A stretch of 27,580 nucleotides of DNA from an uncultured Bacteriovoracaceae bacterium (GTDB taxonomy: Bacteria; Bdellovibrionota; Bacteriovoracia; Bacteriovoracales; Bacteriovoracaceae). A program made the translations under genes and the position numbers. Location of the stretch: assembly GCA_964012805.1 (NCBI GenBank), contig CAXGUD010000046.1:1-27580 (forward strand), written 5' to 3'. The notes below the pieces were generated by a model. The model made no database searches. It was given only the letters and a program-made list of their open reading frames with translations, and was not told the DNA's origin. Below are positions 6,322 to 27,580 of this stretch, in pieces (position 1 is the first letter of the stretch; each line of letters begins with the position of its first letter).

Positions 6322-6612
6322 TTACTTTTTCTTTGCAGCTTTCTTAGCAGTTTTCTTCTTAGCTGTCTTTTTCTTAGCTACTTTCTTCTTTGTAGCTTTC
6401 TTAGCTGTCTTTTTCTTAGCTACTTTCTTTTTTGTAGCTTTCTTAGCTGTCTTTTTCTTAGCTACTTTCTTTTTTGTAGCTTTCTTAGCTGTTTTTTTCT
6501 TTGCTGTCTTTTTCTTTGCTGTTTTCTTCTTAGCTACTTTCTTTTTTGTAGCTTTCTTTGCTGTTTTTTTCTTTGCCGTCTTCTTCTTAGCAGCTTTCTT
6601 TTTTGTTGCCAT
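6322..6612 (-). CDS. Histone H1/Hc2-like basic nucleoid protein
   Basis: 96 aa, 55 Lys, no acidic residues; only K/A/T/V after Met; strong SD AGGAGG; own terminator. Confidence 0.9.
   Translation of the reverse strand: MATKKKAAKKKTAKKKTAKKATKKKVAKKKTAKKKTAKKKTAKKATKKKVAKKKTAKKATKKKVAKKKTAKKATKKKVAKKKTAKKKTAKKAAKKK
6346..6576 (-). repeat. Coding tandem repeat: 42-bp unit (AKKKTAKKATKKKV) x4 interspersed with 15-bp AKKKT units x4
   Basis: Read directly from the DNA and protein. Confidence 0.9.
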
Positions 6613-19389: not shown

Positions 19390-19965
19390 ATGCGTATTTA
19401 TATACATCAAATCACAAAGAAGCTCATTAAAAAAAGGAACTCAAAAAGCCTTTTAATGATAGCCGCATCCATTCTCTGTTTGACACTAACAAGTTGCACA
19501 AAGCAAACTCTTTTAGAACTCTTTAATAAAAGAGATCCTTTGGAGACTGCAAAGATTAAACTTCCCTCTGGAGAGGTTATTAGAGTGAAGCTTGCGCTTA
19601 CAGAGGAAGAAAAAACAAAAGGGCTTAGTGGAGTCTCTGAAAATCAATTTAAAAAAGATGAAGGACTTCTATTTTTTTATTCAAAAAGAGGAAGAAGGTC
19701 GTTTTGGATGCCTGATACCTATTTTCCATTGGACCTCTTTTTCTTAGATAAAAAGCTTAAAATCGTCGATATCGTTAGAAATCTCCCGAATCACCCGGGC
19801 TTCCAGGAGCCCCCTCCAATTCCTAGGGCCAGAACGGTATTCGCTTTCCATGTTCTTGAAATGAGAAGCGACTCTCATTTGGCAAAAAAGCTAAGCCATG
19901 GGGATCAACTTCAATGGCTTTCTTCTATTTCCCTTTCTGAAATAGAATCAAAAATTCGTCCTTAG
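19390..19965 (+). CDS. DUF192 family lipoprotein
   Basis: GLLFFY, SFWMPDTYFPLDLFFLD, HVLEM, GDQL; lipobox LTSC suggests the real start is ATG 19456. Confidence 0.88.
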   Translation: MRIYIHQITKKLIKKRNSKSLLMIAASILCLTLTSCTKQTLLELFNKRDPLETAKIKLPSGEVIRVKLALTEEEKTKGLSGVSENQFKKDEGLLFFYSKRGRRSFWMPDTYFPLDLFFLDKKLKIVDIVRNLPNHPGFQEPPPIPRARTVFAFHVLEMRSDSHLAKKLSHGDQLQWLSSISLSEIESKIRP

Positions 19966-20911
19966 AAATAAAGCCCAAATGGTCCCTAACCAACTTTTTT
20001 TGATGGAATTTGTTATTTTTGATTAGGTTAATTTTCCTTTTTAAATCCAACTTGTGATCGTGCAAGTATGATAGTTTTTGTACTTTTTTTTCATAGTTTT
20101 TTTTCTGAGAAAAATAATCCAACACACCACGATCTGATAGAACAAGTCTTCCCAAAAGAAGAAAACAAACTAACCAAGATAACTTTTTAAAAAGCCTTAA
20201 CCATTTCTCCTTTGGGCCCAAAAAACTTTTTATTCCATCAATCCTTCTTTGAATAAATTCAGGAACCTTGAAAGTTTTTTTTTGCTGGTCTAAACGACCT
20301 GTCCGAGGTGGCCTGACAACTTCTTTTTTCGCACCTTCAAGGCTATGCTTTTTTGGTATTTCCCTTGTTTGCTTCTCTCGCCGAAGATTTCCCTGTGTAG
20401 CTTCAGCTCTCCTTGGAGGAGGTGGAGATGGCGGCATTGACCTGTCTCTTGCTTGTTGTCTTTGGGTTGACCTCATGGGTCTTTTTGGTCTACTACTTCT
20501 TTGGGTTCTAGGAGGAGTTGCTTGATTATATGACCTCTCACGTGGAGGCTCTTCAAAATCTTCCTCTTCAAAATCATCTTCTTCATCATAAACATCGAAG
20601 TCATCAAAGTTTTCTACTTCTTCTAAAGTATCTCTAAGATGATCAGGGTGCTTTGAAGGCATGGCCGTAGGTGCATGCGAGGGTGATCTTCTTGGAGGAA
20701 TCCTCCTCTGAGGGACCTGCCGATTTTGCTCAACTCTGGCAGTTCTCTTTGGGTTTTCCCGTGGTGGAGGTGGAGTTATTATAGCTTGATTAGAAGGCTG
20801 AGGGTTTTTCTTTGCTCTTTTAGCTCTGTTTCTTTCTATAGCCTTCCTCAGCCTATCTCCACTTGGAGAGAGACTTCCAGGGCCATGAGATGTCCGTAGA
20901 GATTGTTCCAA
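19925..20911 (-). CDS. FtsB/DivIC-like septum formation initiator with long disordered N-terminus
   Basis: TM (WLVCFLLLGRLVLS), DRGVLDY, coiled coil, LVRDHLGFISKDEFLI matching the DivIC-type AR..LG....E motif; TTG start. Confidence 0.75.
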   Translation of the reverse strand: MEQSLRTSHGPGSLSPSGDRLRKAIERNRAKRAKKNPQPSNQAIITPPPPRENPKRTARVEQNRQVPQRRIPPRRSPSHAPTAMPSKHPDHLRDTLEEVENFDDFDVYDEEDDFEEEDFEEPPRERSYNQATPPRTQRSSRPKRPMRSTQRQQARDRSMPPSPPPPRRAEATQGNLRREKQTREIPKKHSLEGAKKEVVRPPRTGRLDQQKKTFKVPEFIQRRIDGIKSFLGPKEKWLRLFKKLSWLVCFLLLGRLVLSDRGVLDYFSQKKNYEKKVQKLSYLHDHKLDLKRKINLIKNNKFHQKKLVRDHLGFISKDEFLILFQKGK

Positions 20912-24216: not shown

Positions 24217-24753
24217 ATGATTCGTCAAAACCTTGCTGCTTTTTCTGTTATCGGTCTTATAAGTGGAGCTGCCATCACTTTTCTTTTTTGGCTCATTTAC
24301 TTCATGAATCCAGTTGAAGTTGGCCCAACCAACTTAGTTAAGAACCTGCCTTATTTAAATGCTTTTCTTAATTCTTGTAGTGCTATTTGCCTATTTTTAG
24401 GAGTGAGGTCCATAAAAAATGGTGATAAAGAAAAGCATATTAAGTTAATGATAAGTTCTTTAATTTTTTCAGCAGTCTTCCTTTTAAGCTACATTACCTA
24501 TCATACACTCCATGGAGACACCAAGTTTTTAGCAACAGGTGCAATTAGGCCTATCTATTTTTTCATCCTTATTTCACACATTGTTCTCTCCATTGGAGCT
24601 CTTCCTATGGTTTTAGGTACCTTCTATTTGGGTTGGCAAAAGAAATGGGAAACTCATAAAAAGCTGGCCAAATGGACTTACCCCATTTGGCTTTATGTTT
24701 CTGTTACGGGTGTTCTAGTCGTTGCAATTTTGAAAATATTCCAACCGGCTTAA
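24217..24753 (+). CDS. DUF420 family membrane protein
   Basis: LPYLNAFLN, HIKLM, FLLSYITYH, YFFILISHIVL, HKKLAKWTYPIWLYVSVTG. Confidence 0.92.
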   Translation: MIRQNLAAFSVIGLISGAAITFLFWLIYFMNPVEVGPTNLVKNLPYLNAFLNSCSAICLFLGVRSIKNGDKEKHIKLMISSLIFSAVFLLSYITYHTLHGDTKFLATGAIRPIYFFILISHIVLSIGALPMVLGTFYLGWQKKWETHKKLAKWTYPIWLYVSVTGVLVVAILKIFQPA

Positions 24754-27380
24754 ATTCTCTCTTCAAACCATTTAGCAAGTTCACCACTTTGGACAAGGTC
24801 AAACATTTTTGAGACATCTTCAATTTTTGATCCTCCACCTTGGGCAAAAACAGGCTTCCCACCTCCCTTACCTTCAATCGGAGTCAAAATTTTTCTTAAA
24901 AGGTCGGATGCATTAACCTTTTTGGAAAGTTCCTTCTTAACCCACACAAAGGTTCGGACAGACTTTTCCTCTACCCCAACAAGAGTCACAATATCCTGTT
25001 CACCCTTATCTATAAGTTGGTCACCAAGAGTCTTAAGTGCATTCTTATCCTGATCAAGTCTGGCCATCATAAACTTGGCACTATTTTTAAGAGTAAGGTT
25101 AAGATTTTCTTTATATTCAACTGAAGAGGAAGAAACATTCTCCCTGGCTTTTTTCTTCTCTTTAGACTTCTTTTGAAGTTGGGAAATAGAGTTAACAATA
25201 TCCTCTGGCTTTGCCGCTAACATTTTACTTGCTTGCTTTACAATCTTTGATCGACTTTGAAGCAATTTGAAAGCTTCAGCACCCGTTACGGCTTCAATTC
25301 TTCTTATCCCTTTCGCCACACTACTTTCAGAAGTAATAACAAAAAGTCCAATTTCACCTGTCGAAGGCACATGGGTTCCTCCACAAAGCTCAACAGAGTT
25401 TTCACCAAAAGTAACCACTCGAACTTTCTCTTCGTAATTCTCTCCAAAAAGAGCAAGAGCCCCAGCTTCAAGAGCGTCTCTATATTCTAGAACCTCAGTT
25501 TTTCCACTTGAGTTCTCTCTAATCCACTCATTAACAATATTTTCTATTTTTTCAATTTCTTCTTCAGTCAACGCCTTATTGTTTTGAAAATCAAAACGAA
25601 GCCTCTCATGATTAACAGCAGATCCTTTTTGAAGAGCATGCTTTCCGACAACTGCATGGAGAGCTGAATGAAGTAAATGGGTAGCTGAGTGGTTATTTCT
25701 TGTTTGAACTCTTGTGTCTTTATCTACAGAAAGTTTCACCTCTTCACCAATATTCATTTTTCCTTCTGTCATTTTGGCCTTGTGAAGATGAATCTTTTCC
25801 CACTTAATTGTATCAACAATTTCAGCTTTGCCTGAACCTGCTTCCACCCACCCAAAGTCCCCTGCTTGACCACCTGATTCGGCATAAAAAGGAGTCTGAT
25901 GGCAAACTAAAAGAAATTCATCATTATTCTTTACTTCAGAGACCTCATCGCCTTGGGAAAACATTTTAAGAACTTTTCCCTTATCTTCCATCTTTTCATA
26001 ACCGAGAAAGGAGGTGGCTTCTAAACCTTTAAGGGAAGATGCTAATTTTTCATCACTCGCTCCGCCAGCACCGGAGGTTGACTTAACAACTCTTGAGACT
26101 GAACGGTGTTTTTCATAAGCCTTTTCATAGGCATCTTGATCAAGGTTTAACCCCTTTTCGTTTAACTCTGAAAAAATCACATCTAGGGGTAAACCAAATG
26201 TGGTTACAAGATCAAAGGCAACCTCGCCTGGGAAAGTCTTGCCTTTTAAGTTTTCGCAAGCGTCTTCAATTTTATCTAGGCCCTTTCTTACGATAGGCAT
26301 GAAGTCAGTAATTTCCGTATTAATTTGATGGTAGACGTACTCACTATTTGATTTTATCTGAGGGTAAATCGGAGCAAGGATTTCTATAACTTTCCCAACC
26401 ACCTCATCAAAATTAACTTTCTCTACCTTACCCTTAACAAGTGCTGCTATACACTTTCTTAAAAGGCGGCGAGGAATATAGCCTTGTCCCTCATTTCCTG
26501 GCGCGACCCCTTCAGCTATAATAAAAGTCGCAGCTCTTAAATGATCTGTTAGCATTCTGCCAGTTGGCATATCCACTTTATATAATTTAAGACAGAGATC
26601 AAGGATGGGCTTTAAAAGATCAGTTTCATAAACACTTTCAAAGCCATTCATGATCATGGCCATTCTTTCTAGCCCAGAGCCTGTATCAACACTCTTTAGG
26701 GGCAAAGAGGTAAAAGTTCCGTCGGCATTTTTATTAAGCTCCATAAAAACGCCTGCATTCCAAATCTCTATATACCTTTTAGTCGTATCAAACTCTTGGC
26801 CTGGCTCCCATGCAGGACCAAACTCATCGCCACAATCATAGAAGACTTCAGTACAAGGGCCACATGGTCCCGTTTCACCAGCGGGTCCCCAAAAATTATC
26901 TTCCCCTAATTGAATGATATGAGCTGGGTCTATTCCAACTTTTTCCCATGCTTTTGCTGAAACAAGGTCAGCATCCAAACCTAAAGACTTACTTCCTTCA
27001 TAGACAGTGACGTAGAGCCTTTTTTTATCAAAACCAAGCCTATCAACAAGAAGTTCGTACGCAAGCTCAACGGCTTTTTCCTTGTAATAGTCTCCAATTG
27101 ACCAGCTTCCGAGCATTTCAAAAATTGTCAAATGATGACGGTCACCAACATCGTCAATATCTTTTGTTCTGATGCATGGTTGAAAATTACAGAGGCGTGG
27201 CGAAGGAGGCTCTTCTTTTCCTAAAAAGTACTTTTTAAGAGGGGCCATCCCTGAGTTTATAAAAAGAAGGGTTGGGTCATTATGAGGAACAACTGAAGAT
27301 CCACTAATTTTAAGGTGACTCTTTTCCTCGAAAAACTGAATAAACCTCTTTCTAATTTCCAGACTCGATAACTTTTCCAT
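24750..27380 (-). CDS. alaS: Alanine--tRNA ligase, full length but sequence-atypical
   Basis: DPTLLF, QPCIRT, FEMLG, GPCGPCTE, EIWN, DTGSGLER, TPFYAESGGQ, editing HSATHLLH...ELCGGTH, C-Ala GGG...AQGGG. Confidence 0.95.
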   Translation of the reverse strand: MEKLSSLEIRKRFIQFFEEKSHLKISGSSVVPHNDPTLLFINSGMAPLKKYFLGKEEPPSPRLCNFQPCIRTKDIDDVGDRHHLTIFEMLGSWSIGDYYKEKAVELAYELLVDRLGFDKKRLYVTVYEGSKSLGLDADLVSAKAWEKVGIDPAHIIQLGEDNFWGPAGETGPCGPCTEVFYDCGDEFGPAWEPGQEFDTTKRYIEIWNAGVFMELNKNADGTFTSLPLKSVDTGSGLERMAMIMNGFESVYETDLLKPILDLCLKLYKVDMPTGRMLTDHLRAATFIIAEGVAPGNEGQGYIPRRLLRKCIAALVKGKVEKVNFDEVVGKVIEILAPIYPQIKSNSEYVYHQINTEITDFMPIVRKGLDKIEDACENLKGKTFPGEVAFDLVTTFGLPLDVIFSELNEKGLNLDQDAYEKAYEKHRSVSRVVKSTSGAGGASDEKLASSLKGLEATSFLGYEKMEDKGKVLKMFSQGDEVSEVKNNDEFLLVCHQTPFYAESGGQAGDFGWVEAGSGKAEIVDTIKWEKIHLHKAKMTEGKMNIGEEVKLSVDKDTRVQTRNNHSATHLLHSALHAVVGKHALQKGSAVNHERLRFDFQNNKALTEEEIEKIENIVNEWIRENSSGKTEVLEYRDALEAGALALFGENYEEKVRVVTFGENSVELCGGTHVPSTGEIGLFVITSESSVAKGIRRIEAVTGAEAFKLLQSRSKIVKQASKMLAAKPEDIVNSISQLQKKSKEKKKARENVSSSSVEYKENLNLTLKNSAKFMMARLDQDKNALKTLGDQLIDKGEQDIVTLVGVEEKSVRTFVWVKKELSKKVNASDLLRKILTPIEGKGGGKPVFAQGGGSKIEDVSKMFDLVQSGELAKWFEERI

Positions 27381-27403
27381 GCTCTTCCTTTATGGGAGAC
27401 CCC

Positions 27404-27580
27404 CTAAAGGTCTCGCAGCTTTTTCCTAAGAACCTTGCCAATATTTGTCCTAGGAATAGCTTTAATAAATTCTATGTGCTCGGGAGCTTTACCGCCCTTT
27501 AAGTGTGTATCGCAATATAATCTAAGCTCATCTTCCGTTAAAGAAAAATCTTTCTTTACAACAAAAATTTTTACTACCTG
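27404..27580 (-). CDS. 3' end of an AMP-dependent acyl-CoA synthetase/ligase (FadD-like), partial
   Basis: Not in the ORF track. My translation: QVVKIFVVKKDFSLTEDELRLYCDTHLKGGKAPEHIEFIKAIPRTNIGKVLRKKLRDL*, an AMP-binding C-terminal domain with the A10 lysine (PRTNIGK). Confidence 0.9.
   Translation of the reverse strand, partial: QVVKIFVVKKDFSLTEDELRLYCDTHLKGGKAPEHIEFIKAIPRTNIGKVLRKKLRDL

Follow-up and report, generated by a model that had tools for sequence, protein, structure and literature searches.

We analysed a 27,580-nucleotide stretch of DNA (contig CAXGUD010000046.1, hereafter the window) from an uncultured Bacteriovoracaceae bacterium and concentrated on its alaS gene, which encodes an alanyl-tRNA synthetase (AlaRS). 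In E. coli AlaRS, Asp400 hydrogen-bonds the G3 amino group of tRNA-Ala, and this residue has been called conserved throughout evolution and the positive determinant of G3:U70 recognition in bacteria (PMC6055181). The window enzyme lacks it. By sequence comparison, the enzyme is the sole AlaRS of its host and a member of the clade of AcmD, the synthetase of the ascamycin biosynthetic cluster. It was likely acquired horizontally and likely displaced the native alaS, and we predict that it charges G3:U70 tRNA-Ala with alanine although the Asp contact is missing. The features on which this reading turns are as follows.

24750..27380, minus strand: alaS, AcmD-type ('EIWNAG' clade) alanyl-tRNA synthetase, 876 aa, full-length (TIGR00344, single genome locus, clade placement)
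26616..27380, minus strand: aminoacylation domain, about residues 1-255, with catalytic residues kept and clade-fixed D80, H82, S92, W93 and S235 (alignment)
26751..26756, minus strand: Ala209-Gly210, a one-residue insertion after EIWN that is the clade signature (alignment)
26493..26495, minus strand: Asn296, equivalent to E. coli Asn303, the major-groove residue repelling G3:C70; retained (alignment)
26202..26204, minus strand: Thr393, at the position of E. coli Asp400, which contacts G3 in the minor groove; no Asp here (alignment)
25371..25691, minus strand: editing-domain zinc site, HSATH (564-568) to ELCGGTH (664-670), intact (PF07973)
24792..25070, minus strand: C-Ala/DHHA1 domain, residues 771-863 (Pfam PF02272)

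A full-length AlaRS with Thr in place of Asp400

The window enzyme scores 799.5 bits against the equivalog model TIGR00344 (cut-off 457.05), and its Pfam architecture (PF01411, PF07973 and PF02272) comprises catalytic and tRNA-recognition parts as well as an editing part and C-Ala. An earlier reading made from the sequence alone had described an AlaRS without the Asp that reads G3:U70. The motifs it quoted are all in place: FINSGMAPLK at residue 40, HHLTIFEMLGSWS at 82, EIWNAGVFM at 205, DTGSG at 232, PGNEG at 294, EGQGYIPRR at 297 and AFDLVTTFGLP at 388. Both a HMMER alignment to E. coli AlaRS (PDB 3hxu) and a multiple alignment with the E. coli protein (L141) put Asn296 on Asn303 and Thr393 (codon 26204-26202) on Asp400, which bears the description out. 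Thus, of the Asp and Asn used by the E. coli type to read G3:U70, the window enzyme has the Asn (N296) but not the Asp (T393).

Thr393 is neither an error nor a chance substitution, because four lines of evidence agree. Genomes of the same genus also have Thr at this position, encoded by differing codons (ACC, ACG and ACA; G001 and G002). The gene is under purifying selection, with a dN/dS of 0.031 in comparison with G001. A contig from a separate DNA run (X4) spans 24431-27580 with 5 differences. Finally, the Asp400 site is Thr, Ser or Ala in 128/128 homologues of at least 50% identity, and Asp in 21/21 canonical relatives.

The sequence-only reading had also proposed a remodelled activation site, which holds for the surroundings but not for the catalytic core: alignment A1 shows no variation at R71, H83, F87, W207, N208 or D232, and E205, G234 and R239 are likewise kept. 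Its statement that the editing domain and C-Ala are intact was borne out, as the zinc ligands H564, H568, C666 and H670 and the C-Ala/DHHA1 domain are present; G396 (E. coli G403) is also kept. An AlphaFold2 model (pLDDT 86.5), used to confirm the fold only and of low confidence at residues 76-81 and 430-441, gave a TM score of 0.86 to the E. coli catalytic fragment 3hxu and also matched 3wqy. For all this likeness to the E. coli type, the window enzyme lacks both D400 and Y399, has a shorter motif-2 loop and the EIWN-AG insertion, and carries N96S/F97W and L310P.

The G+C content of alaS (0.397) and that of its third codon positions (0.31) are within the range of the genome, 11% of 479 long open reading frames (ORFs) being as high, which makes composition uninformative on transfer. 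Metatranscriptome contigs (X13) cover 25586-27580 but not the downstream genes, a weak hint of expression given that they come from one run with possible DNA carry-over.

The enzyme belongs to the AcmD clade

The clade was delimited by activation-site motifs and a length of at least 800 aa, without use of position 400; its 249 rows, collected by their likeness to two of its members, are related sequences. The Asp400 site holds Ala in 109 of these rows, Thr in 93, Ser in 47 and Asp in 0, as compared with Asp in 141/148 canonical rows; at 70% identity the clade falls into 75 clusters, 0 of which have Asp. Asn303 is kept in 242/249 rows. The residue inserted after EIWN is Ala in 99% of the 249 rows, at a position that is a gap in 148/148 canonical rows.

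In Table 1 of PMC4257720, AcmD is an 871-aa protein whose nearest relative is EQC50866 of Bacteriovorax sp. DB6_IX, at 44%. We took AJF34503.1 (P0303) of Streptomyces sp. JCM 9888 to be AcmD, because the organism, the length of 871 aa and an identity of 43.9% to EQC50866 (P0056) agree with that entry. This protein has FINSGMAPLK, DRHH, GSWSI, EIWNAGVFM, DTGSG and YIPRR, and Ala at the Asp400 site. The window enzyme is monophyletic with it (SH-like approximate likelihood-ratio test, SH-aLRT, 100) and shares the signature DRHH, GSW, EIWNAG, DTGSG and YIPRR, the lack of Asp400, the retained Asn303 and the four-domain architecture. The window enzyme and AcmD are 43% identical overall, a figure that rises to 65% over residues 5-255 and drops to 35% over residues 256-430; over residues 5-255, three canonical enzymes of the family are 44-49% identical to the window enzyme. 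The clade-fixed residues around the adenylate site (D80, H82, S92, W93, A209, G210 and S235) are all shared with AcmD, whose own change Q68-G (for Q-P) is absent from the window enzyme. According to a review (PMC12945691), AcmD charges tRNA-Ala canonically, can mischarge Gly and Ser in vitro, and is more resistant than the producer's canonical AlaRS to ascamycin, an alanyl-adenylate mimic.

The two enzymes differ in their setting: AcmD is encoded as an additional copy by a biosynthetic cluster that also has AcmE/AcmF and sulfamate genes, whereas the window AlaRS is the sole housekeeping copy. It is therefore not an AcmD-like self-resistance gene of a cluster, as it is accompanied by no AcmF-like gene and its neighbours are a DUF420 gene, a macrodomain gene and an AMP-binding gene. 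An aminoacyl transferase of the AcmF type (truncated; N219Q, D232E) was also ruled out, since the window enzyme is full length with N208 and D232.

Other relatives vary in form and setting. Natural fusions of 1,270-1,400 aa (P0095, P0123, P0134 and L190:6107-10057) join a degenerate AcmF-like AlaRS domain to a full AcmD-type AlaRS; that of L190 adjoins genes for an S66 peptidase and a methyltransferase and one resembling class II synthetases, which suggests an undescribed aminoacyl-nucleotide cluster. In low-GC contigs (L157, L163, L180, L186, L195, L203, L213, L214 and L226), AlaRSs of about 430 aa with EIWNAG have a degenerate AlaRS-like gene as partner. In several actinomycete-like contigs (L069:7878-10424, L165, L168 and L229), an AcmD-type alaS lies between aceE and fab genes, and the genome of L069 (G044) carries a canonical alaS beside its AcmD-type copy.

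That the window enzyme might be inhibitor-resistant, another suggestion of the sequence-only reading, appears plausible, because the clade contains AcmD, reported to tolerate ascamycin, and the adenylate-site changes are shared. One might go further and propose that these changes confer tolerance of alanyl-adenylate-mimic antibiotics and that tolerance drove the displacement, a proposal that is compatible with our reading and that we regard as possible but doubtful. Clustered in the adenylate-binding motif-2/3 region, where identity to AcmD is 65%, the clade-fixed changes are all common to AcmD; the L190 fusion has an S66 peptidase and another class II synthetase-like gene beside it, and about 10 metagenome loci hold a shorter relative with a degenerate AlaRS-like gene as its partner. 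However, the host has no AcmF-like gene and no cluster genes near alaS, and the neighbours of other full-length members (74 ORFs at 19 loci) are mostly ordinary, such as aceE/fab, tgt, mnmA, pcrA and cinA. Moreover, the AcmD-specific Q68-G is missing, synthetase displacement can be neutral, and few bacteria take up ascamycin (PMC12945691).

tRNA-Ala retains G3:U70

Both tRNA-Ala genes of the host genome (C42:3-78 and C129:1-76) have G1:C72, G2:C71, G3:U70, G4:C69 and A73, so that inspection of position 3:70 brought out no altered pair. Among the 34 tRNAs found in this genome, no other has G3:U70 and 11 have G3:C70; tRNA-Val(TAC) and one CAT tRNA have G3:C70, yet share G1:C72, G2:C71 and A73 with tRNA-Ala. 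All 13 tRNA-Ala genes from 8 genomes with the variant enzyme have G3:U70 and A73, 11 of them having been found by a pattern in which G3 was fixed and U70 free; a tRNA-Ala search in G017 found none. A second wobble pair, G5:U68, is present in both host tRNA-Ala genes, in 9/13 tRNA-Ala genes of variant genomes and in 6/13 of canonical genomes. It does not track the enzyme type, because it is present in both groups; with G3:U70 unchanged as well, we rejected co-evolution of the tRNA with the variant AlaRS.

In the mechanism that we propose, alanine would be activated by the unchanged motif-2/3 core (R71, N208 and D232), and the tRNA would be chosen by its fit to the G:U wobble, replacing the Asp400 side-chain hydrogen bond to the G3 2-amino group. 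Backbone contacts at T393, V392 and G396, together with the retained Asn296, would exclude G3:C70. Clade-fixed P303, K309 and H425 lie near the tRNA-recognition site and are candidate compensators for the loss of Asp. The intact editing domain would remove Ser and Gly attached in error. Being the sole AlaRS in a cell with near-identical G3:C70 competitors, the enzyme must discriminate well.

In a published model, the backbone carbonyls at 399/400 and the NH of G403 contact U70; E. coli D400A rejects G3:C70 while N303 is present, and the human and archaeal enzymes do not depend on Asp for a positive contact but lose specificity without it (PMC6055181). Tupanvirus AlaRS, with P321/T416, is still G3:U70-specific, and its T416A mutation alters little (PMC10036535).

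Alternatively, loss of Asp400 could relax discrimination at 3:70, with G3:C70 mischarging tolerated or another identity element, such as G5:U68, taking over. G3:C70 tRNA is a substrate for the D416A mutant of the human enzyme and for D450 mutants of the archaeal one (PMC6055181), G5:U68 is a pair named for human mitochondrial tRNA-Ala (PMC6451123), and Asn303 is absent in 7/249 clade members. This explanation, and with it the relaxed or altered tRNA or substrate specificity that the earlier reading had put forward, is nonetheless unlikely in view of G3:U70 in all 13 tRNA-Ala genes, the retained Asn303, the distribution of G5:U68, the near-perfect G3:C70 competitors that persist in the host, and the D400A and Tupanvirus precedents.

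The variant is the only AlaRS of its host and of ten genera

By tblastn and a PF01411 profile search, the host genome, which is 100% complete, has one alaS locus. We found no second alaS, canonical or otherwise, and no AlaX or AcmF-like gene in it, and a hidden Markov model of 13 degenerate AcmF-like sequences matched only alaS itself. In a survey of the family, 192/201 Bacteriovoracaceae genomes had an AlaRS match. The variant type stands alone in 33 of the 192 (10 genera, all members of each), at an identity of at least 57%, with one AlaRS partial and one split over two contigs. The canonical type stands alone in the other 159, with best E-values no better than 1e-99 and identity of at most 44% among the matches listed. 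Identities are thus bimodal, and no genome with both types was found among the 201 searched. Among homologues that carry a name, the closest come from Bacteriovoracales and Halobacteriovorax, in line with a host in Bacteriovoracaceae. Cultured Halobacteriovorax also have the variant as their only AlaRS.

An AcmD-type enzyme is also the sole AlaRS match in four further genomes (G040-G043). One of these, G040, belongs to a distant family of the same phylum in which 1/16 genomes has this type (G040:C1:2401843-2404440; L009), likely an independent displacement. With an exact pattern that can miss variants, the type was found in 1/199 genomes of the phylum outside the family and in 1/401 genomes of the class of G044, namely G044 itself. 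A GTDB-wide scan (600 matches listed, mostly canonical AlaRS) served as a source of examples, not frequencies. A search for viral carriage with the pattern EIWNAGVF gave 0 matches in viral_contigs.

These results leave little room for a specialised paralogue that uses another amino acid, lactate or an AcmF-like small-molecule acceptor while the assembly lacks the true alaS. The assembly is in 130 contigs, and in the actinomycete G044 the AcmD-type gene is a second copy. However, the ancestral alaS slot of the host is assembled and empty (C22:14503-17984), a canonical copy is absent in 33/33 variant genomes of the family, N208/D232 are intact in contrast to N219Q/D232E of AcmF (PMC12945691), and both the editing domain and C-Ala are kept. 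The paralogue suggested by the sequence-only reading is thus very improbable. Lactate, Ser or Gly as the main substrate likewise appears untenable, given the sole-copy status and the intact Ala-binding residues.

The variant alaS likely displaced a recA-recX-linked gene

In canonical loci of the family, alaS adjoins an SBP_bac_5 gene in 11/13 cases and recA/recX in 8/13, and recA adjoins alaS in 4/8 canonical loci of other families. The window alaS is not at this locus. In the host, recA, recX and SBP_bac_5 are contiguous on C22:14503-17984 (L055:3504-6985) with no alaS; the gap between the recX and SBP frames is only ~10 nt, a scar at the site of alaS in canonical relatives. The same direct junction was seen in 9/10 variant genomes checked, the host included, and the tenth has no alaS after recX within the 0.9 kb of available sequence. 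The canonical genome G013 still has alaS after recX.

A 38-row AlaRS tree (IQ-TREE with a quick search under LG+G4) places the window protein in a clade of 17 rows (SH-aLRT 100) that also holds proteins of actinomycete, myxococcal, acidobacterial and clostridial origin, and the canonical enzymes of the family lie elsewhere. It thus groups with the variant enzymes of its family but not with the canonical ones. A single clade for the 14 family rows was rejected (approximately unbiased (AU) test, p-AU 0.00018). A 273-row FastTree has an equivalent clade of 92 rows (support 0.98) that lies within a set of shorter EIWNAG proteins, and part of that set retains Asp at the Asp400 site. That the gene was acquired, as the earlier reading had also considered, is supported by the tree, the AU test and the empty ancestral locus; taken together, these sequence data indicate that it likely came by horizontal transfer and displaced the native alaS linked to recA-recX. 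The opposite view, that it is the family's own alaS, fast-diverged and moved, would fit the branching of the variant enzymes, whose subgroups match RpoB subgroups within the family, but is hardly credible given the grouping with actinomycete, myxococcal and clostridial sequences, its rejection under LG+G4 and the bimodal identities.

Several points weigh against the reading of a displaced alaS and Asp-free G3:U70 recognition. The kcat/Km of E. coli D400A falls 24-fold, to 4%, and Asp loss in the human (D416A) and archaeal (D450) enzymes permits charging of G3:C70 (PMC6055181). The biochemistry of AcmD is known here second-hand, from the review PMC12945691, and may not transfer to the window enzyme, because the tRNA-recognition region is only 35% identical. 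The tRNA-Ala count leans on the pattern with fixed G3. Finally, 11 variant and 5 canonical genomes share one subclade on RpoB (0.987), with weak inner support, and the variant alaS has differing neighbours in differing subgroups of the family; therefore, one gain with differential loss and several gains both fit.

Relation to known systems and significance

Thr in place of Asp has a precedent in the Tupanvirus mini-AlaRS (T416), for which G3:U70 specificity was shown; PMC10036535 also describes a C. elegans mitochondrial AlaRS with Thr at this position. The Tupanvirus enzyme is of eukaryotic descent and lacks the editing domain, C-Ala and the Asn (P321), whereas the window enzyme, a full-length bacterial protein, retains the Asn. 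Those enzymes without the Asp that we met in the literature are viral or mitochondrial. The present clade is bacterial and, as the only AlaRS, sustains life with normal tRNA-Ala.

Residues 8-445 of the window enzyme score 553.5 bits against the short AlaRS model PRK01584/NF002436 (cut-off 529), but the model is not matched whole (positions 5-450 of 595), and the protein has 876 aa as compared with about 595. Woesearchaeota examples of the short type fall outside the AcmD clade in the 38-row tree. Short AlaRSs (~590 aa) of Woesearchaeota, Pacearchaeota and others (L072, L101, L106, L114, L137, P0162, P0167, P0195 and P0204) often lack Asp400: among 35 non-EIWNAG rows of 540-720 aa, the site is Asp in 18 and otherwise Gln, Glu, Ser, Thr or Ala. 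These proteins form another and larger set of exceptions. The earlier caveat that some divergent housekeeping AlaRS clades vary here was the right frame.

We found no published account of such an AlaRS displacement or of a bacterial housekeeping clade without Asp400, subscription papers being outside the search; the passages of PMC9976931 and PMC9113183 examined describe neither. One alignment row comes from an unpublished genome (G045), on which alone no conclusion rests. Displacement of aminoacyl-tRNA synthetases is common. The novelty is tempered by this, by the variation of Asp400 in short AlaRSs and by the Tupanvirus enzyme, which already shows that Thr works.

The variant AlaRS offers a system for asking how a full-length bacterial enzyme that lacks the Asp reads G:U, and it links a synthetase of antibiotic self-resistance with the replacement of a housekeeping gene that left a clean scar in the genome. 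Mupirocin-resistant IleRS2 is a known xenologous displacement, in which a divergent, inhibitor-associated synthetase is the sole copy in scattered lineages. We tentatively speculate, against the odds as we see them, that an inhibitor-hardened type of AlaRS from biosynthetic clusters, reading G3:U70 without Asp, has repeatedly been recruited as the only housekeeping AlaRS, in Bacteriovoracaceae and in single lineages elsewhere. If true, this type would be to AlaRS what IleRS2 is to IleRS, and its presence would point to alanyl-nucleotide antibiotics still to be discovered in marine microbial communities.

Surroundings of alaS and other features of the window

Two further features lie upstream of alaS.

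27381..27403, minus strand: 23-nt leader between the stop of the upstream gene and the alaS ATG, with a purine-rich, ribosome-binding-site-like stretch (sequence)
27404..27580, minus strand: 3' end of a co-oriented upstream gene, likely an acyl-CoA ligase (AMP-binding) (neighbour clusters; PF00501 in L178)

The C-terminal motif of this upstream gene is one that we take to be of the acyl-CoA ligase type. The gene at the equivalent position in locus L178 matches PF00501, and neighbour clustering places the same neighbour beside alaS in four other genomes (G001, G002, G009 and G019). In the host, the neighbours of alaS are the AMP-binding gene, a macrodomain gene and a DUF420 gene. The last is convergent with alaS, and their stop codons overlap by 4 nt (24750-24753); therefore, there is no room for a terminator between them.

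Elsewhere in the window, 6322-6612 encodes a 96-aa Lys/Ala-rich repeat protein with KKTAKK units, presumably histone-H1/AlgP-like. The ORF at 19925-20911 has a long, disordered Pro/Arg-rich N-terminus followed by a membrane segment and a coiled coil, an arrangement that we take to resemble an extended FtsB/DivIC.

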